A stretch of DNA of 64,000 nucleotides from Chrysomallon squamiferum (Eukaryota > Animalia > Mollusca), in the NCBI GenBank assembly GCA_012295275.1, contig CM022679.1:2666001-2730000 (forward strand), in the 5' to 3' direction. The translations under genes were made by a program, and so were the position numbers. Under the pieces are notes generated by a model. The model did no database searches. It was not told the DNA's origin and saw nothing but the letters and a program-made list of their open reading frames with translations. Shown piece by piece: positions 1,804 through 64,000 of this stretch (the stretch's first letter is position 1; each line of letters begins with the position of its first letter).

Positions 1804-4294
1804 ATGGCAGCTTCTTTTGTTGACCAGCTAAAAGCACTTCTATGGCGAAACTACATCTTGAAGAAGCGAAATAAAAAACAACTCTTCCAGGTTGGTTGAT
1901 TTTCACCACTATTTTTGTATATCCCAACATTTCATTTTCAACAATACCAATTTTATGAAGGTTGGCCTAGTAGTTCCTGAGATATGAGGGTTCAAAGGTT
2001 GGTAGTCATGCCCATTTTGGCCGAAAATCTAAAACGTCGGGGGGCAATATCACCCACATCATTGGTCCGATTGGCCAAAAATTTTGGATTTAGTGCTATG
2101 GGATCCTAACCAAAAAGTATATCAAGTTTCATAAAAATTAGAGACGGTTGGGTTTAATTTTTCTTTTGGGGGGGGGGGATTTTAATATGGAAAATCGGCT
2201 GAAATTAGTCAAAAGAATGTCCTTCACTTGCATTATCATCATCATCATCATCTTTTTTCTCTTTTTTTAACAATGTCTTTTCAGGAGTTATTCTTTCCAG
2301 TTTATTTAATGTTGATCTTGGTAGTGGTTAAAGTACTAAACGAAACTCAGCATTACCCAGCAATAGAATCTTTCCCTCAGCATCCTCTCTCTGACAGCAG
2401 ATTCCACTTCAACTCTTCAAAAAAACTTCTTGTATCACCTAACACATCAAATGTTTTAAACTTGACACCAGCAATATCATCACTTCTTGGTAATGTTAGC
2501 TACGAGATATTTGAAGATAAATTTGAAGCAGAACTGGCCTACAAAGCTAAACCAGAACAAGTTGCAGCCGGAGTCCATTTTGTGGATGCCAAAAAAATTT
2601 GGAATTACACAATCAGAATGGCTTATGAATCTCTGCCATCAGCAAGTCAGATGTTTATAAATGTTCAGAATGAAGGTGCATTATTTTTGTCTCTGTGGAA
2701 ATTTATATAAATATTGAAAATATATATATATATATAAAGAGAAGAAATTATTGACAAAAATCTTATTCTAAAAACATTAGCATTTTGAAATATTTTCAGT
2801 GTAAACATGATCACATTTATACGTAAAGAGAAGTTATGGAAAAGTAAATAAAATTAACTATTAATGTAACTATTTAATGTGACATAGTTAAACCTGAAAA
2901 TAATATTTTTCCATTTTCAAAAATCTAACTTTTATTTAAAGAATAAATTTGTTTAAAAAAAGGGAACGTTTATATACATTTCTTTTTAAAATTTTTACTA
3001 TATTTATTTTTTATTATATTTATTTTTTATTATATTTTTTTATCAGTCCAGTGCCATGGTAGTACAAACGGTACAGAAACCGGAAGAGAATGTCTAGCCA
3101 ATCAGTATCTGACAACCGGTTTTGTCTGGCTACAGACTGCCATTGACACTGCACTCATCAGAGTAAACTGAATCATTGTTTAAACCGGGGACCAGCAGTC
3201 AGCCAGCACAATCACCCAATCTTCAGTCCCTGAACCAATAAAATCACACATAGTCACCCAGCTTTTATTTTATTATTTAAAAGTATCCCAAGATCACCCA
3301 TTATTCAGTCTCTTCCCACCAAAAAAAAACAAAACATAATCCATACAGATTTGATTTTTTTTATATTAGATAAAAGTAATTGCTAACTGGGTCACAAGTT
3401 CAGTCTCCTTCAAGGTTATCTGAATCAATGAAATGCAAAGAGAATCAGAGTTCACCATCACAGTTTGAACTGCGTTTGTCAAGTCATATTTTTTGCAAGA
3501 TGTCCACATAGTTGCATACACTTCTAATATGGAGTATCAAACATAACTGGTTCATTCTGATGCACTTTACAGTGAATTTTTCTGAGACACATTATCAGTC
3601 TTTTTAAATATTTCACAGAAAAACTGATAAAGATTTTTAAAAATTTAAATAATGAAATAATATTTCTGTAAATGCCTCTAATCTGAAAGTAAATTATAAT
3701 AGATTTATTTCAAGTCTAAAAATTAACATAATTTATCAAAAATCAATATTTATAATAGTACTCTTTCTAGTCTAAAACTGAATATAATTTATTAGATAGT
3801 CATTATTTATAATAATATACCATTTCTAGTCTAAAAATTACTACAGTTCATTATAAAATCAACATTTATAATAAAATTTATTTCCAGTCAAAAAAAACCT
3901 GAACAAAAAACAAAAAAATATTTATATAAATAATAAGAAGTAAATAAAATAATACATAATTATGTTTTGTATTTATTTTGCAGCAAGTTGATCCATCGTT
4001 TTCTATGCCAGATGTTGCTGTTCAGTTGATGCCAGTAGATGAATATACACCAAATATCTCAACAATTCAGATCTTCTCATCAATCTACATCGTCATGGCT
4101 TACGCTGTCTTCATCAACTTTCTCTCAATTAATCTGGTTGCTGAGAAGGAGAAGAAAATTCGAGAAGGAATGCAAATGATGGGACTGAGAAACTCTGTTT
4201 GGTGGTAAATAGCTTTTTAATCTTTTATTACAGTAATCATAATTATTAATATTATTATTATTATTAGTAGTAGTAGTAGTGGTAGTAGTAGTAA

Positions 4295-4329
<35 letters not shown>

Positions 4330-6087
4330 TTTCTATTAGAATTATAATTATTAGTAGTAGTAGTATCAGTATTACTATTGTTGTTGTTGTTATTGTGTTT
4401 TTTTAAATCCAGGTTATCATGGTCTCTGATCTACACAGTGATTATCCTAGTAGTGACTGGAATGATTGTCATTGTTCTTATGGCAGCGTCTTTTTTTGCT
4501 AACAGCAACTTGTTCCTTCTTTTCATCATGTTGTTTCTATATGGGCTGTCTGTCATCAACCTGGCGTTTGTCATCACACCTTTCTTCAGAAAGGCTCAGG
4601 TTGCTGGTCTTGCTGCCAGTTTCTTCACCATCCTCCTCAGCCTGCTCTACTTGACTGTAAGCTTAACACGAACACCCACCAGCACCGGCTACCACTACAG
4701 CATCTCTCCCCCAGGCCGCTGGGCTTTCTGTCTTTTGTCCCCTGTTGCTCTCGCCCTGGCTTTGGATCAGGTGACATTATTTCTGTTACATGACAAAATA
4801 AGATTTAAAATTTGTTTTTAATCACTGATTAAATATTAATAAACATAAGAAGAACTAATGTTCATTCGTCTTAAAACTGTATATAATACATAAACTTCAA
4901 AATTATTGTTATTTTGTCTCATTGGTTGTCAAAAAAAAACATAAATAAAAAAACAACAAAAAACAAAACAAAGGGAAAAAGAACTTTTTCAAGTAAAACC
5001 ATTGAAACTTCTATTACTTTTGAACAATGGTTTGATCTTAACTTAATATTAAGATTATTAAGTATTTATTTGAAATGTGTTTATTGCATTGCAGGGAATA
5101 TTTCTGGACATGATTAAAGGAGGGATGTCATTTTCAACACTCACTCTAGGAGACTTTCCACTGTATGCTCCTATCACAATGCTCCTTGTTGACATCATCA
5201 TTTACTTTCTCCTTGCTGTCTACCTTGATCATGTTATTCCAGGTAATCAGTTTTAATACTAAAACTTACTGACAGGACAACACAGAGCAGGTTCTCTTTT
5301 AGACCTGGTAATTAGCTTGTGATTTTTCCTAAAATAAATATCAGACTATAATTACATCACAATTTGCATAATTGTATACAGATCAAAATAATCCAAATTG
5401 TACATTTCTTACTAAATTGGGTTGAAAGTTATAGCAATTTTACTATTTTGGACAAAGATCAGATGGCTTTAAAAATGGCCAGCAGAAGTGCACAAAGCTC
5501 CCAATCTGAAACATCCATCAATTGAATGTGGATGCTTTAGTCACAGCAGTAACGAAAAATCTACTCTAGATCAGTTCACCAATCTGGTACCCAAATACAG
5601 TCTGGCTAAGTGGACTATATAGTTATGTGAACACAGTTTGAACATCACCATTATAGTGTTAGAATAATTATATTTACTACTGAAACAGAACATTTAATAC
5701 AAATTTTCAGAATAAAAAATATTTTTGGTTATTGAGATCTTTCAAAAATAATAATATAAAATGATAAAAAATAACAAAATAACAAGAATGTAATCTGCAA
5801 AGTTATTTTTAATTAATATGTTTACAGGAGAATATGGTCCTCGTTACAAGCCATGGTTTTTCATGATGCCGTCCTACTGGTCTGGAAATACAACAGAGAC
5901 TGGGTCAACTGGGAATTATCAAGTATCGGCAGACCTCAACACTGATTTTGTGGAACTTGTACCTGAAGATTTGTCTAACAAGCTAGGCCTTAGGTAAATA
6001 AATATTTAAAATTAATTTTCTTTTGGTTTAACTGTGACTTAATGAATTAATGAATTATTTATTTATTTATATATTTTTTTTTTTTTA

Positions 6088-6136
<49 letters not shown>

Positions 6137-6507
6137 TGTTTTTAACAGTATATCAAAGTAAATAAACAAAAAGAGAACCTGTTGGTGTCTCTCTTTCAGT
6201 TACTATTTTTATCAGTTAGTATCAAGGAACCTTCCAGTAGATTAAAAACCAACAACCTCAAAGATTACAGTGTTAATTAGTTCTGAGCATTGGCTGGAAC
6301 AGGAAATAGCCCAGCAAGCCATTTTACATACATTCTGTTATTTCTAATACCAATCAGTTTTTTCTCAGTAAATACCCTGTTTTCTATTTCATGGCTGGAG
6401 ATTGTTTTTTATTTCAGAATATTAAATATTTCAAAACACTTTAAAGGCAAGAAGAAAACTGTCATGGCTGTAGATGGTGATTGGATTTATTTCTTTGTTG
6501 CACATAA

Positions 6508-6583
<76 letters not shown>

Positions 6584-9500
6584 ATGCACACACATACACA
6601 GCAACATACATACATTCATATATAGATAGATAGATAGACAGACATGGATACACATACACATATACACAGAGACTCACATACATGATTGTGCAGATACATA
6701 TAATACATAAACATAATTAAGATTCAGCAAAACTTGATATAAACATAGTACATTTTGTTTTTCTGTACTACTTTCAATCTGCTGCTACATAATTTACTGT
6801 ATAAATCTGATGCAAAAATAATTTTTCTAAGATCCAGAACATATTTTTAAAACTACATATTTATTTTAGAACTGTCACTGGATATTTATGAAGGACAAAT
6901 AACAGCACTGCTTGGTCAGAATGGAGCAGGGAAGACAACTCTTATTAATATGCTCTGTGGATTATCTCCACCTACATCAGGAACTGCAACAATAAAAGGA
7001 TTGGTAAAGTTTGTTATAATTGTTATGAATGTATTCAGGTCAATTTTGATTTAAAATAGCTAAGGAATCTTAAATATTATTGTTTATTTATTTATTTAAT
7101 AAGAATGCAAAATACCATCTCTCAAATGACAATCCTTTGGGTACCTTGGTGTCTAGACCCTAATGATTATCACAGATTATTATTTTGTTCATTTTAAAAT
7201 GACATACATGTATACAGAAGAAATATTTTTTCATAGAGAGATATACATTATTCATCAACATCTGTTCTCATGCTGGCAGTTAGTAAGTAACCTTTGACAG
7301 TAATGATCAGCATTCTTGTAAAACAATTCAGAATCTGAACATGAATCTTTCAAGCTGGTCCCAAATAAAGCAAAACCTGTAATTACAATGTCTGATTATT
7401 TCAGAGTGTGTCCAACAGCAGTGATGTTGAAAAGATTAGATCTATGACTGGGGTTTGTCCACAACACAACATTCTGTATGACGAGTTGACTTGTGAGGAA
7501 CACCTCTTGATTTTTGCTGGAATCAAAGGTGTCAGAAAGTCACAGAGATCTGACATTGTTAGTATTTTACATGTGTTACTCTGTTTTCATAGTGTCAGAA
7601 GTAGTCTGTGCTTGTTGTTCACAATGACATAGTAGTAGATATTGTTCGGTTGTCATACTAACAGATATATTATAGTAGATATTGTTCAGTTGTCATACTA
7701 TCAGATATATTGTAGATATTGTTCAGTTGTCATACTATCAGATATATTGTAGGTATTGTTCAGTTGTCATACTAACAGATATATTATAGTAGATATTGTT
7801 CAGTTGTCATAGTAACAGATATATTGTAGATATTGTTCAGTTGTCATACTATCAGATATATTGTAGAAATTGTTCAGTTGTCATACTAACAGATATGTTG
7901 TGCTAGATATTGTTCAGTTGTCATACTATCAGATATATTATAGTAGATATTGTTCAGTTGTCATAGTAACAGATATGTTGACAGTCTCAGTAGCACAACG
8001 ATAACATTAATATTATCTGTTTATTAACATTATTGCCATATTAAAGCAGATGTTAATTTTCTTTTTTGTTTTCACTTCCTGAAATGATCTTTTGTTTTGT
8101 TTTTTACTTGATTTTTCAACTCACATTCCTTTTCTGTATATAGTTTATTTAGTTTATTTAGGTATTTTTAAACTATTTAATATATTTCTCTCAGATAATG
8201 TGAAATTTTGTTTTCTTTGTACTATTTTAATATGTAAACTATTACTTAGTACTTTCTATTTGCAGTGATAGTTCATTTATGACCTTCAGAGAATAGCTGG
8301 CATTTTAACACCTTTGTAATCTTTTGTTATTTTGTTATTTTTTTAGATTACTTTTACATTTAACTAAATTGAAGATTGATTAATAATCATATACACATTA
8401 ATTATTTACTTTCTTTGGAAAGAAAAAATGTAAAATAAGAAAAGATGATTAATCATTATCTTTTTGTTTGAATATTAGAATAATGAATTGATTAACTATT
8501 TAACTTTGGTAACTTTAAAATGTCATAAATAATGTTTTGATATAGTAAGGAAGCTGTAATATTTTATTATTAAAGATACTTTATGCAAATTAATTAAATT
8601 CATTTATTTAATTATTTACCATTTGAAAGTTGATGTCTTACTGTTATTGACTGAATATTAAAATATATATTCTGTTGACTTCTACAATTTAATTCATTCA
8701 GGTTAAGAAAGTCTTGAAGGATGCTGATATTGCTGACCAGGCCAACGTCTTTGCTAAAAGGTTGAGTGGAGGTCAAAAGAGAAAACTTTCTGTTGCTATT
8801 GCTCTGATTGGCAGTCCTGAGGTATTAACACTGTTTTAATTATTTATTCTCAGAAGCAAAATAGCCATATATACACTGCATGTAAAAATGGCCAACGCAT
8901 TTTCAATTTTTATTTTTTTAAATGATGATGGTAATCATGTTATGATGCAAAATAAACATGGGCTGTGGGTACCTTTTGGAAAACTGCCACTGCTCAGAAG
9001 ACTAGGCACAGAGATGAATACATAGATATAAACATATATACAACAGAAGCACACACTCGTTTTCCATATCAATCATTGCCTGTCGTTTGTGTATTCTGTT
9101 TGCTATGTGTTTTACTCTCTATGGTTTGGTACACATAAAAAATCTCTTGTTACTAATTGATAATATTAACCAGTGAATGGTTAGGGGAGTGGATTTTCAT
9201 TTTCATATCTTCATTAAAATATTAAATAATGAGATAATATAAAACCAAGAGGTTAATATTAAAATGTGATGAAGTATTTATAGAAACATTTTTGTTCATT
9301 GATTACATTACTAGCTGAGCTTTTAACATAGAATGGTTGGCCTTACTTACAATGTGTATTTCTGATATTTGTTTTGTTCTTACAGATCACAGTGTATATT
9401 TCTGATATTTGTTTTGTTTTTGCAGATCCTTTTTCTTGATGAGCCTTCAGCAGGAATGGATCCCTACTCCAGACGCCATCTTTGGTCCCACCTGAAAAAT

Positions 9501-12500
9501 AACAAAGAAGGGAAAATTATTCTGTTGACAACACATTTCATGGATGAAGCAGACATTTTAGCAGGTGACATTATTTTATTCTAAAAACAGATTACTGAAC
9601 TTCAGTTTGCAGTAAGCAAAGAGATTAACTTTCTCATTATTTTCTCCCTCTCTCCTTCTCTCTTTCTCTCTTTCTCTTTCTCTTTTTTCTCTTTCTCTGT
9701 CTCTTTCTGTCTTTCATTCTTTCTCTGTACTTTTCAACCTCTCAATCTCTTGTCTCTGTTTCTGAAAATACAATAATTTCTTTCATTTTATAGATTTATT
9801 TAGATTTTTAATTTTTTTTAAATTTATTTATTGATCTTCAGATCGTAAAGCTATTATCAGCCATGGTAAGCTGAAGTGTTGTGGATCCTCACTGTTTCTG
9901 AAGAATCGATTTGGAATTGGATATCATTTAAAGTGAGACAAGTCTGCTTAGTCTCTGGAACTCATATCCTTTTTCTTCTTTCCTATTTTTTTTAATGTTT
10001 TTATTTTACAAATTATATTCTAATTATAATTGATCATCCAAAGTGATAATTAACTGAACTTAATCATGGTCCTTCTAGTGATTACCATTCTGTTAATTGT
10101 GACAATTTACCTGGCAGCAGCTCACTTAATTAATCAATTTTTCATAGCTGGAAGTTATCAGTCATTGACAGCTTTATAACCTGATCAAGAGAAATACTTT
10201 TTGCCAGTTCTCATGCATTGGTTTAGTTCCTGTTTAAAGCAAATTCTGATGTTTTTTTTTTACAGGTTTTTTAAAGGGTGTCATTGGCTCTTTATATGAA
10301 TGATCTGAACAAATACTAGATACTTCGAAGGGAGGGACCTATCGTCATTAGTAACAAAATAGAGTAATAAAATAATTCTGTTACAAAGCATTAGATTGCT
10401 GTCATTGTCTCCTTTGACAACTGGAGCCACAACTTCAGTATTTACAAGACAGACTGATTTCTGTGATTTTTCTCATACCAGAAAAAACTTGTACGTGACA
10501 GCATCATGTCCATTTAAAAATGGCAGCATTCACTACTTATTTTCCATTATTGTTGAAAATAACTCCAATTGGTAGCAAATGTCACAATCCTTACAGAACA
10601 TTTCCAATGATTATTTTAAAAAACTATGACTTGTAACAAATTTAATTATCCTCAAAATGGCATCTTATATTTTCTTTTAAGGACATTTTTGTATTCATTA
10701 CCTTAGAAGGGAATTTTAAATTTAATTTTAGTTTAATGGTTAACTCTAATTATTGTTAAAATTTTGGTTTTCTTTGTTTAGCATGGTTGTTGAGCCACAC
10801 TGTGATGGGAACAGAGTGACAGATTTGTTGAATCTACATGTGTCAGGTGTCCAGCTGAAGAGAACACATGCCAAAGAATTGTCCTTCACCTTGCCACTGA
10901 CAGAGGTCACCAGATTCCCAGGTAAAAAATATTGTAATAAATATTGAAATTATACTGAGAATGGAGAAAAGATAATGATGGGATTAACAGATGAAGTGAA
11001 GGAGAGTAAAACGGAGAGTGAAATGTAAGAACATTAGATGAAGAGCAAGATGGTTATCTTTCAATATTTCTTTAGATGTTCCTTAGAGTGAAAATGGTCT
11101 TTCTGTATTTTTCTTGAACTGTATTTAAAAGATTTCTAAACAATTTTCAGCGATGTTTCGTGAACTAGAATCACCTGTTGGTGATGGACAGAGCAAAGCT
11201 GAGTCACTTGGTATCAGCAGTTATGGTGTTTCCATGACATCACTGGAAGAAGTGTTCCTGAAAATAGGTAATTAATAAACTCGTTAGCAGTCATTAACAG
11301 CATAATTTTGTTTTGGTGTTTTTGTTTTAAATCAGTTGATATCATCTAATACAAAAAATGTAATACACAAGTGATATTCACAAAACAGGTTTTGTCTCAT
11401 TTAAGACTGTGCATCTTACCCAGCTAGCACAAAACTGACTCACATCTGGCAGAGCCAGGTATGAGCTGTCTTTGGTCCAGGTAAATGGTTCTTTAAAAGA
11501 TGATGTGTTGTTCTTTTGGGGATGGTATACATTTGAATGCCAAAGTCATTTTTGACAACATTTTCAAGCAAAAAGCTGAGAGAATGTCAATATAAATTTG
11601 ATAAATTGATAACTGGTGAATTCTAATACATTTGACTATTATATTTCAATTGGGAATAATAGCAACAGTCTATAAACATGTGCAAGTAAATATGATTTTA
11701 TTTACTTATTATTTTTTTTTTAAATTTTGTTTTATTAAAAATGTCTTAATTCTTTCATATATTAAATTTTTTTAAATGTATTTATAAAAACATTCACTCA
11801 ATATAACCTACTAAAAAATTATAAATGTTTACTCCTGCTTAATATAAGTTTTGTTAAAAAAAATTAATCCTATAAGTCACAATATAAACAAATATTCTGC
11901 ATCATGTGCCAGCACCAACACAATTTAATCATTTGCAGGTGAAGATGAAGACGTTGCTCATTCAGAAACTTACATCAATGAGATGTTTGAGGATGATGAC
12001 GATGCCACCAAACAACACTCTACATCAACACAGATTCCTGAACCTCAGCCCAACATCGCAGTGACTTTGCCTCCATCACAGAGTCACACAGACGATGTCA
12101 AGATTACATCTCAAAGATTCTGGGCTCTGCTGAAAATAAGATTTTTGTTGAAGATTCGAAACAAAGGGGCTGTAATTGTCCAGGTGTTTATACCCATAAT
12201 CCTGGTGATTGCTGGATGTCTTATCAGCAAACTGAAACCTAATGTGGACAAGTCGAACCCTTCGTCACTTGAGATCACACCTTCCTGTGCTGTGTCTGAA
12301 ACATCTCCTCTTCTAGCTGTTGATTCAGTTGGTAAAGAAAAGATCTTGTCTTTCTGCTTATATTTTTCTCTTTCTTTCTTTATACTGTCTCTTAATTCAA
12401 TATCTGTAATAAAATTCATTTAAATAAGTATTTTAAACTGTAATATTTTATTTATCTGTTTCAATAAGTGATTTATTTTTTTGTACACACTGTATTTTAA

Positions 12501-12635
12501 TTTAAATTTCAGATTAATTAACTTATTTATGTATTTACTTCGTTCCATGTGATACTTAACAGCTTGTCTGCTGAGTTATAAATGTTTGTTTGTTTACTTT
12601 TTCTCATTCCAATTTAATCTTTGTGTACTTCTCTC

Positions 12636-12689
<54 letters not shown>

Positions 12690-15600
12690 TTCTTCAAATA
12701 ACATTATTTTCAATCAGTGGTTTACAATTTTTGTTACTTAAGGTACACCACTGTCAGAAGAGTTTATAAAACAAATGACGAGTAACTTGCCTGTTGACTT
12801 AGTTAATTCGTCTGTGAACATATCTCAGCTGTCGCACCATTGGATGGGTTTCAATCTGTTTGAATTACACAGAGTAAGCCTCACTCTCACCTCATCTTCC
12901 TCTCAGAACAGGACATAACTTTATTACACTCTATTCTAAGCCACTGCATTTGAGTCAGATTTGTCATATATTTTAAGACACCACTACTGTTACAAAGCAA
13001 CAAGGTAATAGGCCAGAATTGAAACAAAATTTATGAAATTTGACAAGTCTGAGTAAAGTTTACAGTATATTTAAAAACACCAGCACTGTTACCTAGCAAC
13101 CAGGTAATTTCACAAAGAATTTACACATTTATTTTCGGAGATTTTAGTCAGTGAGTGTGAAGTTTCAGAAATGTTTTGAAAGAATTGTAAAAGTTATCCG
13201 GTTTTTCAGAGCTTTTATAATCACCATCATTACCATCAACATCATCATCATCATCATTATACATATTTTAAATATATTTCAGAATGCCAGTTCCAATTAC
13301 ACAGCTCTGTACAATGACACAGCCATCCATTCTCTGCCAGCAGTGATTAACTTGTTATCAAACGGACTTCTGCAACTTTCTACCAACGGCTCTGGCATTT
13401 CTGTGACCAGCTTTGTGTGGCCATCAGTGTTGACTTCTGTTACTTACAGTTCCACTTCCTTCATTGCAGCCTTAATACTTGTCCTTGCTTTCCTTATTGT
13501 GCCTCCAGGGTTTGCCATGGAGATTGTCAAAGATCGGCAGGTTAACTTTATCTTATTATACAAAACTATCAGTAGCTTTAATTTTATTGTTAACACACAG
13601 ATAAGTCAGATGTATTCATGTTGACAGCACAAATAATAAACAGTGCAGATAATTTTGATAAAAATATGGCTGCCATAGCATTCGTCCAGCTGGCCTGGGA
13701 TCAGATATGATTCAGATCCCAGGATTTTCCAGATTTCTGGATCAAAGCTTATTGTTTGCTTAAAATAAAATAAAAAAGATGGAAAAGAAAAAACAACTAA
13801 ACTATATGTAACAGAAACAAATTAATACATTTGTAAGACTCATAGCTGAATATTAATAATATAAAACAGACACAATAGTAATTAAAGATGAAAAATAATA
13901 CACAGGTAGACACACAAACAATTAATGATATAAGAAATATTCTATAAATAAGTGTACACAGCAACAAGAACACTTTCACCAAACACAATCAGAGTTATAT
14001 TGTTATCTCATCTTTATTTTACTGAATCTCTGCTATTCTTTTAGCAACACTCTTACAGATAATCTGATGAAAAAAGTGAACTTAATCCTTTGACTCATTG
14101 GTTTTGGTGTTTTTTTCGAACAGATCAAGGCACGAAGTCAGCTGCGTGTGTCAGGAATCTCATTCAACTTGTACTGGTCAACTTGCTTCTTCATTCACCT
14201 CATCATCAACCTCATTCCAGCCATAATCTGTGTCATAATTGTCATCTCTGTAAACGTTAGTATATAATTTGTGTTATAATAGTCATCTCTGTAAATATTA
14301 GTATATAATTTGTGTTATAATTGTCATCTCTGTAAACGTTAGTATATAATTTGTGTTATAATTGTCATCGTAGAAAATGACAGCAGTATTTTCATGTCTG
14401 TCCAATTTTTGTTGACATTACCATGTATCTCAAGCCTATTATTTAGATAGGAAAATGAATTCTCTTTCCATATATGTGTACATTATACAGCTTGATTTAA
14501 GACATTCATTGGTTTGAGAATGACTTTAACTATGATAGGATGGAGAACTATGAAGTTTGTATAAAATATATTAAAAGTCTTTTTGTTGACATCTCCACCC
14601 AGCAACACCATTTTAATAAGCCACTAATTTTGAAGTATACAAAACAACCACAACCTGTACACACTAATGAAATATTTTCAGGACACTGTTAAACTTTTAT
14701 TCTCTTTGATTTCAGATCTCAGTGTTCTCTTCAGTTAAACTTTTATTCTCTTTGATTTCAGATCTCAGTGTTCTCTTCAGTTAAACTTGTATTCTCTTTG
14801 ATTTCAGATCTCAGTGTTCTCTTCAGTTAAACTTGTATTCTCTTTGATTTCAGATCTCAGTGTTCTCTTCAGGAGGAGCTGTCTTGGCCCTGCTGCTGGT
14901 GTTTTTTCTGAACATCCCTTCCAATCTTCTTCTCACCTACATTTGTTCTTTTGCTTTTGACAAGTTTGAGACCTGCCAGGCATTTTTACCCACTATTTTC
15001 TTTATTGTGAGTAAAACATATCTGTTACCACAAGTAATACTATTTGTATAATAACTTCTACCACAAGTAATGTTATTTGTATGCCATCATTATGATCAGT
15101 TGTTTGTTATTTGTGCTTTGGGTGCAGGTTTTAAATTTGGTTTAATCTGTTTTGAGTACAAACAGCATTCTGGTTGTTATTTCACAAAAATGGGCTTTAG
15201 CAGACAGGCAGACAAAGAGACAAAAAATGTCTGCCTGCATAAAAAGAAAATTTATCATTTTTTTTGTTTTTTTTATATTTTATTATTAAATTCTGAAATT
15301 ATGTATATATTACTTGCAAAATGGTCTCTTTATACTGATGCACCCAATATTAATTTTTTCAATATAAAATGCCCATGTTTGGCTTGATTTTCATTATGAC
15401 AGTTTGTCTACACAATCAAATATACAAAATTAAATAAACAACAACAAAAAATATATATCTCTGTTGTTTATTTACACTGTTAGTTTTCTTTTTGCAGACA
15501 CATTTTAACAAAAAAAAAACATCCCCAAAACAGCAATTAACAAATACAAAAACAACAACAACAAACAAACAAATTTCAGGTATATGAAATTTATTTTTCT

Positions 15601-15838
15601 CTGCTGGTTTTACAATCTCATAATACATAGTATATTATCCCTAATAGTAAACAATGAATTTCTTAAATATTACAAATTATTTTTACTGTTATTGTTAGTT
15701 TTATTGTTGTAACTGTTGATGTTATTGTTATATAATAAATATTTTCTTCAGAATTCTTTGCTGAACTACCAAAAATGTACATAAATGTTCAATTCTACTG
15801 AATTTTATTTGATTGATTATTTTGATTTATTTTGTTTA

Positions 15839-15880
<42 letters not shown>

Positions 15881-17962
15881 ATTATTTATTACTATTATTA
15901 TTTATTACTATATATATATATATTTATTTATTTTTATTCCAGGCAGGGCTCTTACCTTACATTATTGTTTCTAAAATGGATATGTTTGGCCAGTCATCTA
16001 GAGCAGAAATACTTCACTATGTATTTACACTCATAGATCCACCCTACATTATAGCTGGAGGCATATACTACATAGACAGGGTAAGATCCACTTTACATTA
16101 TATCTGGTGGCATATAATTCATAGACAGGTTAAGATCCACTTTACATTATATTTTGTGGCATATTATTTAGACAGGGTAAGGTCCACTTTACATTATATA
16201 TGGTGGCATATACTACATTGACAAGGGTAAGAAATACTTCACTATGTATTTACAGTCATTCATCCACCCTACATTACATCTGATGGCATATACTAAATAT
16301 ACAGGTTAAAAAATACTTCACTATTTCAATATTTCCAGGCAGACACTGTATTTACCATATGCGATTGTTTGTAATCAAAGTTGCAAATTAGATTTATGAT
16401 AGAATTAATATTTCTGAAGTTTAAAAAAGTTTCAGGTTTTTTTTTAGATTACTTATTTTTGTATATGAATGTTTTAATTATGTTGTTATTACTGAAGTTG
16501 TTGTAAAACCATGCAGGTGTCACGGATAGCAGGTGGCTTGAAAGAGAGAATGTCAGTAGACCGGTACTTCAAGTGGACAAACAACATCCTCATCACCATT
16601 CTTGTGGTGAGAAACTGTTTTCTGATTTAGTATTATTATTTGTTTAACATCATTGACTTCAGTTAAAAGAAAAATTCTTTCTTGGACTGCTGTAGCAAGA
16701 CTTTTTAGTGAGACAGTGAGAACTGGGACCAAGGTAGAATTAGAATTTTCTTTTAGATGATTGTTAATTTGTTTCTAGTGAAAAGTAAAACCGAAACAAA
16801 CTGACAACTGTTGCATTGCCTGAATCTACTGATTATTAGCACATTGAAAAGTATACAAATTCATTCACAATAAGACTTTCAGTAACACTATGTTTTGACA
16901 AAAACTGAAAAAGCATCAACAATTAAAGAAAAACAAAATTATTTGAAAAACATATTTGTTGTTTGAAGTCCATATTTATTTTTATCATGAATAAAATCTG
17001 GAAATTTGAAAATCAAAATAAACTTTTAATATTTTTTAGCCTATAGTGCATATTGGAGTTCTGTACTTCATCCTTAAAATCGTAGATGCACACAAAAGTG
17101 GGGTTAACATCAGTGAAATTCTGAAATGTGGTGATAAAAATGTCAAGAAAATTCCTGAAGAAAATACTGATGTTGTGGAGGATGAAGATGATGATGTCAC
17201 TGAAGAAAGACGTAGAGTTTTTCATCTCGAACATACAGGAAACCAGGCAAGGATTAAACTAAAGACTTAAATCTGTAATATCCTATATTAAGTTTCTTAA
17301 AAATTAAATTTTAAATGACAGATCTAAGACTAATATCCTTTATTAGTTTTCATAAAAATATTTTTTTTTATTTACAGATCTAAGACTTTAATATCCTTTA
17401 TTAGATTTATTAAATTTTTTAACAGCAATGCTAAGTGTAGAACTGAATAATTAAGCGAAACAGTTTCTTTTATAAATCATATCAAGGATTGGTTTCAGTT
17501 ATATTTTATCAGAAATTTACTTTGGTTTATTTTTAATTTTTCTTTTCTTCTATTTGTTTTCTTTTTCTTTCTTCTTCTTGTTCTTTTCTTTTTATTATTT
17601 TTTTTTTTTATTTTTTAAAAATATGTTTATATATTTATTTAATTAATTATCTTTTTAATTAATAAATTATTTATTTATTTTATTTATTTTATTTATTTTA
17701 TTAATTAAGGGAACTCCTGTGTGTTATGTACAAAATCTGAGAAAAGAATTCAAATGCAGAGAGAAAGCTGAGGATAAAGTGAAAGTTGTTGTTAGGAATG
17801 CAACATTTGCAGTGGATGCTGGGGAGGTTCTTGGTTTATTGGGTCCAAATGGTGCTGGAAAAACAACAACCTTGAACATGATCATAGCTGAAACTGCAGC
17901 AACAAGAGGAAAGGTTAGTGGGTAGCCTACTTGTTTATATTTCTAGAATTGTATGTGAGTGA

Positions 17963-18006
<44 letters not shown>

Positions 18007-21000
18007 TGATATTTATTGACACACATACACATTTATTCACTGTACATACTTCACACTTACTTCAGATCATTGTTGCTGGTCACAGTGTCCATTCCAGTTT
18101 ATCAGAAGCATTTCAGTCACTTGGTTACTGTCCTCAGCATGATGCATTGTGGGATGACATCACACTAAAAGAACATTTGGAGTGCTATGCAGCCATAAAA
18201 GGTGTCGCAAAGCAGGACATAAAATCTGTCATTAATTAGTAGGTGTTCCTTTTTTTTCTTTTCTCTTTTATTATTATTATTATTAATATTATTATTATTT
18301 TTATTAATTTGTTGTTTTTTTTTGTTGTGGATCCATCATACAGTTTTCACTGGTATGGTATACAATTTAATGCTAATTTGTTGTGAATTTTTAATTTTAT
18401 TTTTTAGTTATATACAGAGTTTAAAACTAAATGAACATGTAAACAAAGGTGCAAAAACATTATCTGGTGGAACAAAACGAAAGGTAACTTTTATTTTCAA
18501 ATGTAAAGGATATTTCTACTGCTTTGAGAAAAACAAAAAATTGAAACAAAATAAATCTCTTCAAACTTAGGCAAATATATATTTTATGTATTTCATACAT
18601 TGATAAAAAAAATTCATATACATTTATATATTTTGTTTAATAATACAAACTAGATTTTTTTTTTACTTCATTTATTCATTTAAATATCCTTTTGAGTAAC
18701 AATTTTATATCTTTCTAATAAGTATCTTATTTAATATATTAAAACTCCAGTTATTAGAGTTTTTCACTGTTCCTTAAAATAAATATGTTTAATGTTTTCT
18801 TTCTGATAGGATAGATAAATACATTACAAGCAAATAAATAAAATGATTAAATATAAATATTAATGTTTTCAGCTGAGCTATGCAGCCAGCATGCTTGGGA
18901 CTTCACAGATTGTTTTGCTTGATGAGCCATCTACAGGAATGGATCCAGAGTCGAAAAGATTTCTTTGGTTAGTCTTTATACCTTGAAAAATTAATATAAT
19001 ATTCCTTAGATGTCATTAAAAAAAAAATTAAATACCTTAAATGTAAGATTCTTTTGGTTTTGTGCATACATTTCTCAAAATAAAAATAAAAATATTCCAT
19101 ACATATATAGACATTTTGAAAATAATACAAAGATGAAATTACTCTGATGCATTTAATTAGCGTAAAAAGTAACGACAATACATTTCTTTCATATTTTGAA
19201 ATATATGAAATAAATAGGATCTATATTTAATGTGTTGAAGAACAATACCCAAAGATTTTCTAAGAAATGAAAAAACAAATAAAAAGTTTTTATATTTGTA
19301 TTATAAAATGATAGTTAATTAATGGCAGACACACTTCAGTTTTCAAAATCGAATAAAATGAATTTTGTTTGACTGGCAAAAGGATTTCATTTTCAGATAC
19401 AAAACATGTAAAAATAGAAGAAAATAATATTAGTTGATGTTTTGTTTAGAAGTTATTTATTTAAAATTATTTATTACATATATAAATTTATAATTATAGT
19501 TTATTGATATTTAATTATTATTTGTATTTGTCATTTGATACATTTATTGGTGATTAAAGGGACACAATCAGCTCAGCATTCCAGTCTACAGGAAGGGGGG
19601 CCATTTTGACAACCCACAACATGGAAGAAGCAGACGCACTATGTTCTAGAGTAGCCATCATGGTCAATGGTCAAATAAAGTAAGTTTTGTGACATCTTCC
19701 ATACACTGAAACAGACTATAATTTAATAACACTGACTTGTTATCAAATATCACATAAAAACAGATGTTTTCAATAAGCATGTCTCTCAAAAACATTATTT
19801 ATATACATATAGTGTGAAATGACTCTAGCAGACTTCAGAAACCTCCATTTGTATTAAAATTTTAACATTTATTGGCAAATATGCTCTTCTCCATTGAAAT
19901 AAACCACACTGAGGCTTATAACTAGTCTCCATTTTTTGTTCTTATATGTCTCAGATATTTATGTCTAACATTTTTATAATCCTGATTACAGTCAAAATAC
20001 ATGAAGGAATAATGACCTTTCTTTTTTCTTCTTTTTGTTCTTCATGAACTTGTTATTTTTGGTTCATACTTTATTATTAGCAAAGGTTTTTGTAAAGTGG
20101 TCACTACAAAATATTGAAATAAAATGTATTTTAGGTATTTCTACTTTTAATAACATTAATAATAAAAAAAAAATTTAAAATGAATTTTCAGATGTCTTGG
20201 TCCAACTCAGCATCTGAAGGACAAGTTTGGCAGTGGTTACTTGCTAGAGATTAAACTAGAGAATAAAGGTCATGACCTCGAGGAAGAACAGGATAAGCTT
20301 GAGGCTCACTTGACCCAGTTGTTTCCTCAGATTCAGTGTCTGGATAGGTTTGCTGAACGTTCACAGTACAGGATATCAAAGAATGATGTGAAGTTGCTCT
20401 CAAAGATATTCTCCTCTTTGGAAGACTGTGAGTGTATCACATTTATTATTCATTTTATAATATATACACTTCAGGTTCCTTCTCCAGTCTTTGTGACACC
20501 TCTGTTATTAAGGTATATAAATAAACAATTATATAAAAGATTTACTTCAGCAGAGACATATTGTCCAAGGATTCCTCCTTTCTTTTTGCAAAGGTGTACA
20601 ATTGATATATTGGTTCCTCTCTTGATAGGCTTTCTAAATAAACAACATTTTTCTCTACCAGTTCATTACTTATTAATATACAGACAATGGTAATCCAAAA
20701 CAAATTAACAAAGGCTACCTGGTTTGTACAATGCTAACAATACTTAAATTGTATACCAAGTAGATGTTTAAATTATATACTTTAACTGAGAATGTTTTAT
20801 GTGTTGTTTTTTTCAGTAAAGAATTCACATAGTGTAGAGGAATACAGTTTCAGTCAGTCAACACTTGAACAGGTAAAATAAATGTGTACATAGTTTAGTA
20901 AGCAAACTCAGTCTACACTTGAACAGGTAAATATCTATGTACATAGTTTAGTAAGCAAACTCAGTCTACACTTGAACAGGTAAATATCTATGTACATAGT

Positions 21001-26471: not shown

Positions 26472-27013
26472 TTACTGAAAAGGAAAATATACAACATGTT
26501 CTTGTCTTTTTATTTTGAATACATCATTGGGTACGAGGGGAACTTTTCTGGGAGAGTGGTATAAACGGGAGACAACTATATTAACAATTGATTGATCATA
26601 GCGATGACATTTCCCCTGCCAGTGAAGATTTACGTCACACACGTATCTTTCCTTTGCGCCTTGTGGACTAAGACATTCCAGTTCTAAACTGCAGCCCAAC
26701 CAGGGCCTCATTATTAACTGCTGTATGAAGAGGGATCTTGTGATCAGAATAAAGCCAGCCTGCCGATCAGGAACTCCTTCAAACGTACATGGAATCTCCC
26801 CAAGATATTCAAATGTCCGTATGTCCGTGTGTTCAACTAAAGTGAAGCGTGGATCATCTTCTCTGATGTACAGAAAACCTGTATTCTTTGCGTGTCGAAA
26901 AACAGACGACAGTTTGTAAGGGGAAGTAATCCGAATTGACGTATCCATGTACATCACAAATCCATAATCATTTAATGCGAGCTGTAAACATTTAAAGTTT
27001 AGGATATTATAAT

Positions 27014-27044
<31 letters not shown>

Positions 27045-28813
27045 TTAAAGTTAATACTCAGCAAAAATAAGTTAATATAATTTATAACAGGCTGAGATGG
27101 TTATTATAATATACTGAGTTGTCTATATTTTCGCTTTTATTTGAATAACACGAATGTTTTGCATGATTAGAAAAGTCAATAACTTACTTGGATTACAATC
27201 GCTTTCCAACCATAAAGTTTCAAGTGTCGAATATGATGCGGAAAGCTTTCAAATGGAAAATCTTTTATTTCACATTTGCAGTATTTTACCATCTGAAGGG
27301 AAAAGCTTAACGTTTACAATAAATAAATAAATGAAAGAACAAATTAGAGGATTTGTGATTTTCATTAGCAACTTCAGAAAATAAAACTTTCTTTCGTTCG
27401 TTCGTTCTTTCTTGCATTTTTTTTTTTACTTTCTTTGTTCGTTTCTTTTTTCTTTCTTTCTTTTCCTATATTTTCTTTTATATTTATTTATTTATTTATT
27501 TGAAATGTCTGTAATATTCCATATGCAAACCTATCATTAAATTCTATTCCTTTAAAAATGGAATACAATATACTTTGTTCTTTATTTATTATGGATATAT
27601 GAATGAATGAATGAACAACAACAACAACAACAACAATAACAATAACAATAATAATAATAATAATAATAATAATAAAGGACTACGTCAGAAAACATGTCTA
27701 AAACATTAAAAAAATATATTTTTACCAAATCCCTTTGCTGAGTGGTTAGTCCCAAGTCATAAAAAACAATCTGTAAATGAGGATAGACTGAACGTATTTC
27801 GTGAAGGTTTTTGATCAATCCTTGAAGTGTGAAAAAATAGTCTGCAGAACAAGCAGCAACAACTACAGGCAGAGTTTGGTTGTAATTTGTCGTATCGTAA
27901 ATACTGTCTTCTGCCAGAATTCCCAGATCTTTCAAATACGACTTTGAGAAAGGTGGTACAGGTATTTCCATTATTTGCTTAATGTCGTCCTCCAGTCTAG
28001 AACCAAAATCCCTGGGACAACTTTTGTTTGATGCTGGTAACGCTGAAAATGAAAAAGAAAAGAAAAACCCTCATAAAAATGCACGTGCGCAAACGAGAGG
28101 TTATTATAAAATAAAGCTGTAAATTATCACAACAAAAGTAAATTATCACAACACAGAGTAAATTATCACAACACAAACTGTAAATAGTCAGAATACAAAC
28201 TGTAAATTATCACAACACAAACTGTAAATTATCACAACACAAACTGTAAATAATCAGAATACAAACTGTAAATAATCAGAATACAAACTGTAAATAATCA
28301 GAATACAAACTGTAAATTATCACAACACAAACTGTAAATAATCAGAATACAAACTGTAAATTATCACAACACAAACTGTAAATAATCAGAATACAAACTG
28401 TAAATTATCACAACACAAACTGTAAATAATCAGAATACAAACTGTAAATTATCACAACACAAACTGTAAATAATCAGAATACAAACTGTAAATTATCCCT
28501 TTACTAACAGTAAATAATCACAGTATAAAGTACAAATTATCACAAACAAAATGTAAATTATCACAGTATAAACGTAATTATCATAACACTGTAAATTGTC
28601 AAATGATATATTTTAAATTATCACAAGACAAACCTTCATTGTTTCTCTGAGATATCTGTTGTAGGTTTGTAATATCTGGTTTGTTTTCCTGCAAATATTA
28701 AATTAAGCAGTTAAATCAGAAATAACTTTGTGATCTGTAAACAACGAAGTGGATGCAGTAAGAATATTTACATAACATTTGGGGACTTCGCACATAAATA
28801 CACGCTATTTCAA

Positions 28814-30497: not shown

Positions 30498-30592
30498 GTA
30501 ATAAATAGGTTGACTGTTGATCTGATGTGGTCACTTGTCATCTTTTTTTTTTCTGCACGCCTTGCTGCCTTGGAAAGTTTGTTCACGTAAGG
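30498..30592 (+). promoter_or_regulatory. Candidate TATA-like box, initiator and non-coding first exon of the peptide precursor gene
   Basis: TAATAAATAG near 30499-30508, TCACTT about 30 nt downstream (30531), donor candidates CAC|GTAAGG (30587) or AAG|GTTAAG (30592). The coding ATG sits 1 nt after an acceptor (TTCAG|A ATG), which implies an upstream UTR exon. Inference only. Confidence 0.35.
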
Positions 30593-30737
30593 TTAAGTTT
30601 AATTTTAATTTTTGTTTTTGAAACATTATTGTGAACGTGATGTGATTAAATTTTCAAACAATTATTGCTTTAGCATTAATAATATAATAAATATCTTTGT
30701 AAAATTACTAACGAGAATAAGTTTATTTTGCTTCAGA

Positions 30738-31520
30738 ATGAAGACCACATATTTCTTGCTGGTTCTGTTGTCCTTGACCTTGGTTCCTGAAAACGTGGAC
30801 GGCTGGTTCTTCCGATCCGTGCGAAGAATTCGCGTCAGTCCGTATCACACACTTGGTTGTATGGCGGCCTGTAAGTGGGCCAGGAGCTGGGCATGCAAGG
30901 TGTGCAAGAGGAAGAGAGGACTGGACGTGCGTGCTCCTCCAGCAGAGGTATTTACCAAATATAACTAATTTAATATAAAAACTTTAATATCAAATTCTGA
31001 TGTAAACGCAAAAAGGTTCTTCGTAAACGTCATGGATTAAAAATGTCCTTTGAATTTTCAGGATGCTGACGATGTCGCAGCTATGAAAGAACTGGATCTG
31101 GACGGAGATGGTTTTGCTGACCTGCATGAAATCTCTGTAGCATCGGGTCTGAAACCCACAAACGTGGTTCAAATGAAAAAATTCCACGCTGCAGATATTA
31201 ACGGTATGCCTCTTGCATACAAGATGATAACAATACCGGAACAAATTTATTTAAAACTGCAAAATGTAAAATTTATTTGTAATTTGTAATATTTTATTCG
31301 CATAAAAGTATTTTTTAAATTTTAGGTGATGGTAAACTGAATGTAGCTGAATTGGATGATTTCAATTTCGTAGATAAAGATGAACGTAAGTATACTCATT
31401 TCTTAAAATACATTTGGAACAAGTTCGTCTGTATATAAACCCCATACTTTTTTGTTTTATAAAAATGACTGCTATCTAGTTATAGAAGCTGTTGACGAAG
31501 ACGGAGCTGACGAAGATTGA
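30738..31520 (+). CDS. Secreted prepropeptide, 150 aa: signal peptide, cationic Cys4 peptide, KRKR site and acidic two-EF-hand C-terminal domain (putative antimicrobial or bioactive peptide precursor)
   Basis: Exons 30738-30947, 31062-31203, 31326-31385, 31480-31520 (453 nt, GT-AG, phases 0/1/1). Protein: MKTTYFLLVLLSLTLVPENVDG / WFFRSVRRIRVSPYHTLGCMAACKWARSWACKVC / KRKR / GLDVRAPPAEDADDVAAMKELDLDGDGFADLHEISVASGLKPTNVVQMKKFHAADINGDGKLNVAELDDFNFVDKDELIEAVDEDGADED*. EF loops DLDGDGFADLHE and DINGDGKLNVAE. AATAAA at 31591. The tandem paralog has the same exon structure. The gene model is strong; the function is inferred. Confidence 0.88.
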
Positions 31521-32049
31521 ATTCGTGACGTCGCACCATGAATCCATATAGATTCGTCAGTCGATTTAAAATGTCAAGGGCAAATGGGTCAATAAATGTA
31601 TCGAAGAAAAATGTTTTGTTTTGTTTGTCGGAAACAAACACGTACTTGTATAAAACATCGGGAATTTCAAATGTCAAAATGACATTCGATAACTGTTACA
31701 ATACAATACCACAGAAGATTTAAAATTTCGGTTTTATTGTCGAATGATAACTAAAAAGGTTTCAAGTAACTGCGTTGTGTCACTTTTTAATTATCATTAT
31801 GTAATAAAATGTTAACTTCTCCACTACATAATTCAGATGCCCTGGATCATATTAAATATTAACGGAACGGATATCGGTAAACGTAGCTGTTAGTAATTGT
31901 TACATCAGAATAACTTTATATGAAAATTACATTTACAACACAATTAAACACTTCATATTTTTAAAATTATAATTACTGTTTTTATTTATTTTACACACAC
32001 ACGCGCACACACACCCGCACACGCGCGGGCACCCCCACACTCACTCGCA

Positions 32050-32100: not shown

Positions 32101-32146
32101 GAACCAAGGTCAAGGTCAGAGATGTACCAAGAAATACGTGGTCTTT
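32101..32146 (-). pseudogene. Inverted fragment of the signal-peptide coding sequence
   Basis: Reverse complement AAAGACCACGTATTTCTTGGTACATCTCTGACCTTGACCTTGGTTC aligns to 30741-30786 and 32316-32363. Confidence 0.75.
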
Positions 32147-32310
32147 GTTGTGGAGTTTTTCATGTACGTATTTCAAACAGCAAGATGTTTTATTTTAAAT
32201 CTAAATATGTACCTAACAATTTCAAAGATCAAAATTTTATTTCACTTGTACATCGATAAAAAAAAGAAATTGTTGGTTGTGAAGTAATTTAATATTGATG
32301 CTTTTATATC

Positions 32311-33083
32311 GGAACGAAGACCACGTATTTCTTGTTGGTTCTGCAAGACCTTGACCTTGGTTTCTGAAAACGTGGACGGCTGGTTCTTCCGATCCGTGCG
32401 AAGAATTCGCGTCAGTCCGTATCACACACTTGGTTGTATGGCGGCCTGTAAGTGGGCCAGGAGCTGGGCATGCAAGGTGTGCAAGAGGAAGAGAGGACTG
32501 AACCTGCGAGCTCCTCATGCAGAGGTATTGAAATATCAGTTAAAAATATTCAATTAATCACCAGATAAGACTAATCAAATTTTTTGAATTAAACATTATC
32601 TTATGAATTTCAGGATGATGACGATGTCACAGCTTTGAAAGACTGGATCTGAACGGAGATGGTTTTGCTGACCTGCATGAAATCTCTGTAGCATCGGGTC
32701 TGAAACCCACAAACGTGGTTCAAATGAAAAAATTCCACGCTGCAGACAGAAACGATAAGTAATACGTAATGTTCACCAGAATCGAGTGAAATCTGAAACT
32801 CTAAAAATTTTAAACTTAAATCTAAACTGTTTATAACGGATAAAACAAACTTAATAGCAATAATTTTTTTCCTGCAATGACAAACTAATGTGGCTGAATT
32901 AGACGACTTCAGGTTTATGGATAAAAATAAACGTAAGTAACAAAACGATTTTGAAAATCGATTAATTTTGAATACATGAACAAATCTTCAAAAAGTCAAA
33001 TTGTTTCCACTTTTAGTTGTTGAAGCGGTTGACGAAGACGGCGCAGACGTCACACCCTGTATCGATCGACATCACAATTTGTA
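32311..33083 (+). pseudogene. Tandem pseudogenised paralog of the EF-hand peptide precursor
   Basis: All four exons are recognisable (about 32314-32524, 32614-32754, 32877-32932, 33017-33083). Lesions: acceptor AG>GG (32311), ATG>ACG (32314), +1 indel in the signal region (about 32344-32348), 1-nt deletion near 32642, donor GT>AT (32755), and a lost acceptor plus indel in the third exon. Confidence 0.85.

Positions 33084-36894: not shown

Positions 36895-64000
<27,106 letters not shown>

Follow-up and report, generated by a model that had tools for sequence, protein, structure and literature searches.

Precursors that place a secreted cationic cysteine peptide in front of an EF-hand region are known from mussels and from a sea anemone. 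As far as the covered parts of PMC8004829 describe them, mytimycins have a signal of about 23 aa, a cationic Cys-rich peptide, a dibasic site and an anionic C-terminal EF-hand extension; their mature core is under purifying selection, and the role of the EF-hand is given as unknown. Equinin B of Actinia was purified from tentacles and is active at 0.25-1 mg/mL, and its best match is a 147-aa EF-hand-annotated protein made up of signal, peptide and prodomain (PMC11051070, in part). The ascidian turgencins A/B are cationic peptides of 35-36 aa with a helix-loop-helix tendency and ladder disulfides; an EF-hand precursor for them has no mention in the covered part of PMC7024374, which together with PMC10384874 and PMC13208793 treats the turgencins and the St-CRPs. 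EF-hand regions are also found in Lottia EFCB1/EFCB2, a secreted multigene shell-matrix family that makes up just over 0.1% of the shell proteome (PMC4094399, in part). Secreted EF-hand shell proteins are treated in PMC10741955 as well, and snail neuropeptides encoded with an EF-hand region are known by the title of Bogdanov 1998, as listed in PMC8398477.

We analysed a 64-kb stretch of Chrysomallon squamiferum DNA (the window, meaning the whole stretch) for which an earlier note had proposed a new host-defence peptide system. The layout itself is not new. Set beside the description in PMC8004829, the window precursor has the mytimycin order of signal, cationic Cys peptide, dibasic site and anionic EF-hand, and the same layout is reported for the equinin B precursor in the covered part of PMC11051070. 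The contrast with mytimycin that the note had drawn does hold, as the mature mytimycin is larger and has more Cys (about 54 aa, 10-14 Cys, reported only from mussels in the covered part of PMC8004829), whereas the peptide of the window has 34 aa and 4 Cys and belongs to a gastropod.

A spliced gene, its transcripts and a broken copy

The window is AT-rich (GC 0.24-0.36). Sequence analysis places four coding exons on the forward strand at 30738-31520 (30738-30947, 31062-31203, 31326-31385 and 31480-31520, with the TGA stop at 31518-31520), and removal of three GT-AG introns of 114, 122 and 94 nt leaves a single 150-aa frame. All the counts of the earlier note, for the signal, the 34-aa Cys4 peptide, KRKR, the tail and the EF loops, were reproduced from this frame. 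Coding exon 2 holds EF loop 1 (31095-31130) and the start of loop 2 (31194-31203), coding exon 3 the remainder of loop 2 (to 31351), and coding exon 4 an acidic C-terminus and the stop. The ends of the homologs P0001 and P0128 of the vent snail Gigantopelta aegis are similarly acidic, and this exon is kept in the second copy described below. An AATAAA is found at 31591, 3' of coding exon 4. On the other side there is a probable 5'-UTR intron on the same strand (30587-30736), with a putative GTAAGG donor at 30587 and an AG acceptor at 30735-30736; the fit of an RNA contig from run X3 begins at 30737 and leaves 80 nt loose at the contig's 5' end.

Six sequencing runs from three studies contain parts of the stretch; the contigs of four runs were aligned, plus four runs of one study. 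RNA contigs are restricted to exons, and intron 1 (30948-31061, phase 0) is skipped exactly in X1, X3 and X5. In the DNA-like run X6 the introns and flanks are covered and no intron 1 joint was seen. One paralog RNA contig from X2 joins across intron 2 (31204-31325, phase 1) with seven variant letters and covers coding exon 3, while intron 3 (31386-31479, phase 1) was placed by homology, with no RNA joint seen. The gene is real and spliced, and its product is a predicted secreted precursor. The observation goes beyond chance because full-length G. aegis homologs match at E ~1e-31 to 1e-34, because the RNA contigs skip exactly intron 1 at a joint that is absent in X6, and because bins that hold only intron or flanking sequence show no depth in the RNA runs.

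The spliced transcript that the earlier note had presumed is thus seen for intron 1, in family contigs that stem from paralogs or alleles of the window copy. A variant at 31083 that is absent from the window copy is in every aligned contig of X1, X2 and X5, and several different continuations past exon 1 (loose ends at 30948) represent several transcripts. What the contigs show is transcription of the gene family and splicing at these positions. Depth in X6 is 350-1150 on the exon 1 and 2 bins versus mostly 42-75 on flanks and introns, an excess that fits many copies, though the depth ratio is not a copy number. Loose ends at 31197 in X2, X3 and X6 run from exon 2 straight into exon 3-like sequence; their presence in the DNA-like X6 hints at a paralog without intron 2, or at RNA within X6. 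X6 also holds one further, more diverged paralog, which differs at 16 positions within 172 nt, including some in the peptide region.

A broken tandem paralog (copy 2) lies at 32314-33044 on the forward strand, where ACG replaces the start codon and there are three 1-nt frame breaks and degenerate splice sites. Both copy 2 and the multi-copy family had been overlooked earlier. An X6 contig with flanking sequence (32102-32393) is the same as copy 2 at the lost start and at the first frame break, and the idea of an assembly artefact was rejected on this ground. Copy 2 equals the window gene (copy 1) along two tracts, 137 consecutive nt across the peptide and 94 nt in exon 2, and the introns of the two copies, 43-56% identical, are near saturation. 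At third codon positions there is no difference among the 34 sites of the peptide, versus differences at 12 of the 28 sites of exons 3-4 (Fisher p 1.4e-5, for regions picked after viewing the alignment). Protein selection cannot hold silent sites identical in a dead gene, and the pattern therefore suggests recent gene conversion between the two copies.

Other genes are found elsewhere in the window. A multi-exon ABC transporter gene at ~2186-20700 (forward; Pfam ABC_tran E 7.9e-11 on one exon) looks ABCA-like by eye, and a kinesin motor gene is at ~53000-59000 (forward; Pfam Kinesin E 2.1e-32 at 58570-58935). An upstream gene has two long coding-like exons at 26472-28070 on the reverse strand that gave no Pfam match and that we take to be reminiscent of DUF1647 or glycosyltransferase-like proteins. 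A tandem repeat with a 22-nt unit is found at 28063-28633.

Precursor parts and relatives

Signal peptide and cleavage sites were judged by eye from residue patterns. The predicted signal (30738-30803, 22 aa, ending V-D-G) has a hydrophobic core and small residues at -3/-1, and 14-17 of its 22 residues are identical in nine G. aegis homologs. The predicted mature peptide (30804-30905) is 34 aa long with 7 K/R, no D/E and 3 Trp (net +7, 4.08 kDa, pI 10.3), its Cys at 19/23/31/34 forming C-x3-C-x7-C-x2-C, and it has amphipathic segments with 11-residue moments up to 0.64 and 0.52. It is followed by KRKR and then G-L, a predicted convertase site (30906-30917). The earlier note had expected furin or PC convertases to cut at this multibasic site; the site stands, RKR being kept in 15 of 16 family members, but furin was judged the less likely enzyme. 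Since P4 is K or N in the family members and never R, the predicted cut is more likely to be made by a PC1/3-PC2-type convertase. No Gly precedes KRKR, which means that an amidation signal is lacking. The mature form could also be shorter than 34 aa, given three R-X-X-R motifs in the peptide interior; the residues after two of these (Val; Arg then Ile) make poor sites.

The tail has 90 aa with 26 D/E versus 7 K/R (net -19, pI 4.05), and its start, the acidic pro-region up to the end of coding exon 1 (30918-30947), is the least conserved stretch of the family alignment. Two 12-residue loops at residues 82-93 and 115-126, spaced 33 residues apart, have D/N at 1, 3 and 5, E at 12 and helix-loop-helix spacing, as in an EF-hand pair of the calmodulin-lobe type; the strict PS00018-type pattern fits the second loop only. 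Pfam EF-hand_1/5 appears at E ~0.004 for window exon 2 alone, the G. aegis homologs exceed the Pfam EF-hand cut-offs, and a tail profile matches calmodulin lobes in the PDB at E ~1e-6 to 1e-10.

A single-sequence AlphaFold model of the peptide (38 aa, mean pLDDT 60.5) has helices at 13-25 and 29-36, so that a disordered Trp/Phe/Arg arm is predicted to precede a helical hairpin; the full-length precursor model (pLDDT 46) was set aside. The Cys would form ladder pairs, C19-C34 and C23-C31, a pairing inferred by analogy to the turgencin ladders and not taken from the model. With this low-confidence model Foldseek gave no match at E<=0.001, and the best Z of a VIA fold search among 48,161 chains was 3.2. 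A PDB sequence search with the peptide returned two chance matches only (E 1.5). In Pfam, window exon 1 matched no family at E<=1, and the 10 matches of homolog P0001 at E<=10 included no defensin, big defensin, mytilin, myticin or macin. Those families have six to eight Cys. By Cys number or by Pfam the peptide belongs to none of them, nor to mytimycin, as the earlier note had judged. In the ESM Atlas nothing was found for the precursor at >=0.9; the four or five molluscan clusters that score 0.80-0.81 (133-145 aa) serve as no more than leads, and the N-terminal part gave no usable match. Among JGI metagenome contigs none of 489 pattern matches was confirmed. A description of the 34-aa peptide was not found in full-text literature, a coverage that leaves most subscription journals outside, and the family is apparently undescribed.

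Close relatives of the window precursor came only from G. aegis and from ENA contigs, among the matches listed. Seven of the 104 candidates of a search with exon 1 were full-length homologs, all from G. aegis and 80-90% identical. A profile search (302 matches of 5643 candidates, the best 120 of the 302 examined) and cluster look-ups found the same peptide in at least ~11 G. aegis gene models, with isoforms counted once, spread over three scaffolds of chromosome size and a further one of 24 kb, possibly a duplicate of one cluster. ENA contigs add single-exon pieces of the family, and that several of these are on 354,900-base contigs suggests a tandem array. A tree on 42 columns had none of its 17 branches well supported.

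The peptide is conserved far more strongly than the signal or the tail. Between the window and nine full-length G. aegis members the peptide is 94% identical, the signal 73% and the tail 49%; among the nine paralogs themselves these values are 97%, 82% and 69%. The window tail shares no more than 50% identity with each of the nine tails, which are 54-98% identical to each other. In an alignment of 16 members, which left out the frameshifted P0003, isoform duplicates, P0121 and P0130-P0133, 22 of the 34 peptide positions are invariant and the four Cys are present in all 16. Both EF loops are present in all 10 full-length members examined. The RNA variant tables agree in direction, with one listed variant (silent) in the 102-nt peptide region versus 13 in exon 2, seven of which alter a residue, in contigs that drop rare variants. 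For the time scale, the covered part of PMC7895826 gives ages of 40 and 116 million years for splits within the snail family.

Automatic G. aegis gene models also have the same signal, dibasic site and EF tail flanking other cargoes: a 14-aa Trp-rich linear peptide with net charge +1 in P0008, 19 aa with an aberrant tail in P0030, and a 17-aa Cys3 peptide with net charge -2 and several dibasic sites in P0128. The acidic three-Cys cargo with extra dibasic sites recurs in P0016/P0127/P0128. XP_041362225, XP_041362427 and XP_041360222 are the accessions of alternative-cargo models. Outside of the snails, a search of 1.84 billion proteins (best 150 of 1090 matches examined) was flooded by multi-EF-hand proteins and may have missed more distant relatives. 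One of the 150 listed matches aligned from the signal onward, the chiton protein XP_064609442 (P0211) of Liolophura sinensis, at E 2.7e-10 over positions 1-130. Like the window precursor it has an MKT-type signal, a Trp-Phe start, a cationic CxxxC cargo, a tetrabasic site and two EF loops 33 residues apart. It differs in its cargo (41 aa, 6 Cys, net +16, then KKKR) and is an uncharacterised protein. Its N-terminal half scores 14.9 bits on the window-family N-terminal profile, a score that no full shuffle out of 500 attained, and that 6 out of 500 attained when the signal was kept. Its tail alone ranks 33 of 271, no better than generic EF-hands, and when the chiton protein was used as the query, the 20 candidates contained no match but the protein itself. 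On these alignments it is a probable distant relative. XP_064609442 is itself a good antimicrobial-peptide candidate.

Possible roles of the peptide

We think it moderately probable that the gene belongs to an amplified, strongly conserved family whose precursor is predicted to be cut at KRKR to give a 34-aa antimicrobial host-defence peptide, and the defence role put forward earlier remains the most likely reading. It is favored because the layout is shared with mytimycins (PMC8004829, in part), because antibacterial equinin B maps to an EF-hand precursor (PMC11051070, in part), and because the x7/x2 Cys spacing matches the inner part of antimicrobial turgencin B (PMC7024374, in part). It is also favored because the chiton protein carries a Trp-initial, +16, Cys6 cargo with KKKR and an EF tail, because the peptide is +7 and amphipathic with 3 Trp, and because there are at least ~11 G. 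aegis gene models and several distinct transcripts.

In a mechanism of this kind the signal would be removed after G22, and the two disulfides would staple the helical hairpin behind the Trp/Phe/Arg arm. A PC1/3- or PC2-type convertase would cut after KRKR and a carboxypeptidase would trim the basic residues, with no amidation. The Ca2+-loaded acidic EF-hand pair would likely act as a pro-domain that helps with folding and packaging and masks part of the charge, and the peptide would be released through proteolysis and competition from anionic microbial surfaces, not by a Ca2+ switch. It may then act on microbial envelopes or on another conserved target; that target would be conserved rather than fast-evolving, and having many copies that are nearly the same, in part through gene conversion, would increase the dose in which a single optimised peptide is made.

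There are points against a defence role. Many invertebrate defence families (e.g. MgCRP-I) combine a hypervariable mature peptide with a conserved pre-pro region, as far as the sources covered go; here the pattern is reversed, and the 97% identity of the peptide versus 69% of the tail among the nine G. aegis paralogs also fits a receptor ligand. Other roles are reported for related EF-hand precursors, in the shell matrix for Lottia EFCB1/2 and in a snail neuropeptide gene, the activity of equinin B is weak in the covered part of PMC11051070, and the RNA contigs carry variants that are absent from the window copy.

A separate claim, compatible with host defence, is the earlier idea of a safety catch, in which the EF-hand tail would hold the peptide in the way of a calmodulin lobe and free it when Ca2+ or pH changes. 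The opposite charges (tail -10 to -19, peptide +7), the likeness of the tail to calmodulin lobes noted above and the retention of both loops in the 10 full-length members would fit, as would F2-V6-V11, whose 1-5-10 anchor spacing is a weak and common motif. However, the same tail follows the +1 linear cargo of P0008 and the -2 cargo of P0128, and its divergence is much faster than that of the peptide, which is not what a tightly bound, co-evolving partner would show. EF loops of the canonical kind should be Ca2+-saturated in the ER, the granule, haemolymph and seawater, so that no Ca2+ drop is expected upon secretion and the loops would be saturated throughout. We regard such a catch as unlikely.

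It is decidedly unlikely that the product is a neuropeptide- or hormone-like signalling peptide from an EF-hand-bearing prohormone. This would account for a nearly invariant mature peptide beside a drifting pro-region, and the cleavage site is of the PC-type dibasic kind, with several dibasic sites in P0128. However, the amidation signal is absent, the peptide is strongly cationic and Trp-rich, and the family is amplified with its close relatives, among the matches listed, only in G. aegis and ENA contigs; neuropeptide genes, by contrast, mostly exist as one copy and can be followed across molluscs. The snail neuropeptides with an EF-hand region (Bogdanov 1998, by its title in PMC8398477) do provide a precedent.

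A broader reading joins several of these elements. In vent snails of this group a reusable signal and EF-hand cassette would take swappable cargoes, of which this one, amplified, near-unchanged across species and gene-converted, would police vent microbes or chemosynthetic symbionts by way of a bacterial target that is itself conserved. The EF lobe would keep it inactive until Ca2+ or pH is low in a phagosome or symbiont vacuole, and mytimycins, equinin B and the 'EFCB1-like' proteins would be one cnidarian-to-mollusc class of EF-hand-chaperoned defence peptides. Taken whole this is decidedly improbable. The symbiosis of two symbiotic peltospirids is thought to have been gained independently (PMC7895826, in part), so a family shared between the lineages would predate symbiosis and could only be co-opted. 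Such a unified class is not described in the full-text literature, with most subscription journals outside its coverage.

A role in shell or mucus matrix we hold to be very unlikely. NCBI's names for P0001, P0006 and P0211 point that way, a label that probably has its source in Lottia EFCB1/EFCB2, which were detected in shell matrix (PMC4094399, in part), and the shell and sclerite proteomes of peltospirids include EF-hand domains (PMC11871041, in part). Against it, the conservation sits on the peptide (94%) and not on the tail (49%). In the peltospirid hard-part tables none of the 28 SMART EF-hand rows listed shows a pair of loops with the 33-residue spacing where it would be expected, with ids that are not mappable to sequences. 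A shell-proteome entry with a coordinate match was rejected as it is calumenin.

A metal-binding peptide (4 Cys + His) that detoxifies vent fluid, or a toxin, is highly improbable: Y-H and the four Cys are invariant and the named relatives live at vents, but in secreted proteins cysteines are as a rule oxidised and the hairpin, as predicted, would set them as ladder pairs, no toxin family match was found in the Pfam and PDB sequence searches, and peltospirids are not known to be venomous.

For the host-defence reading, the inverted conservation and the apparent cargo swaps on one cassette would be unusual among invertebrate defence genes. No antimicrobial peptide of these symbiont-bearing vent snails was found in our literature searches. 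The word 'antimicrobial' is absent from the text and the 10 supplements searched of the G. aegis genome paper (PMC7895826), and the family has no mention in the searched parts of that paper and of PMC11871041. Databases list its genes misleadingly, as EF-hand protein, calmodulin-like or uncharacterised. Synthesis of a peptide of 34 residues with two disulfides costs little, and together with the 90-residue tail such a peptide makes the role of an EF-hand pro-domain, the question left by the mytimycin paper (PMC8004829, in part), directly testable.

Comparison with described peptides

The plant alpha-hairpinin motif is a C-x3-C-xn-C-x3-C helical hairpin. The window peptide departs from it in that its second motif is C-x2-C and its hairpin is predicted only at pLDDT 60. 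The snail precursor of Bogdanov 1998 we take to be Helix HCS2 (the pleurin precursor). HCS2/pleurin gives several short amidated PRXamide peptides and is neuronal (PMC8398477, in part), whereas the window gene has one 34-aa cargo and no amidation signal. Lottia EFCB1/EFCB2 and the window family are both secreted gastropod EF-hand multigene families, with EFCB described as shell components in the covered part of PMC4094399.

Turgencin B, with the spacing x3,x4,x7,x2,x3, includes the x7,x2 of the window peptide, which is an analogy only, as turgencins have six Cys paired C1-C6/C2-C5/C3-C4 and a C-terminal amide (PMC7024374, in part) whereas the window peptide has four Cys and no Gly before KRKR. 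Equinin B comes close in some respects. By description it is, like the window peptide, a 34-aa cationic peptide with CxxxC and a precursor of the same layout (PMC11051070, in part). It differs in having 8 Cys (x3,x3,x3,x5,x3,x3,x3), no Trp/Arg arm and a two-exon gene (PMC11051070, in part); its precursor XP_031572955 was compared with that of the window by description only. The comparison with mytimycin is by description as well, and no mussel-named protein is among the best 120 of the 302 profile matches. The layout of this precursor is thus already known, from mussel and sea anemone, and the peptide that it carries had no described match in the searches covered here.
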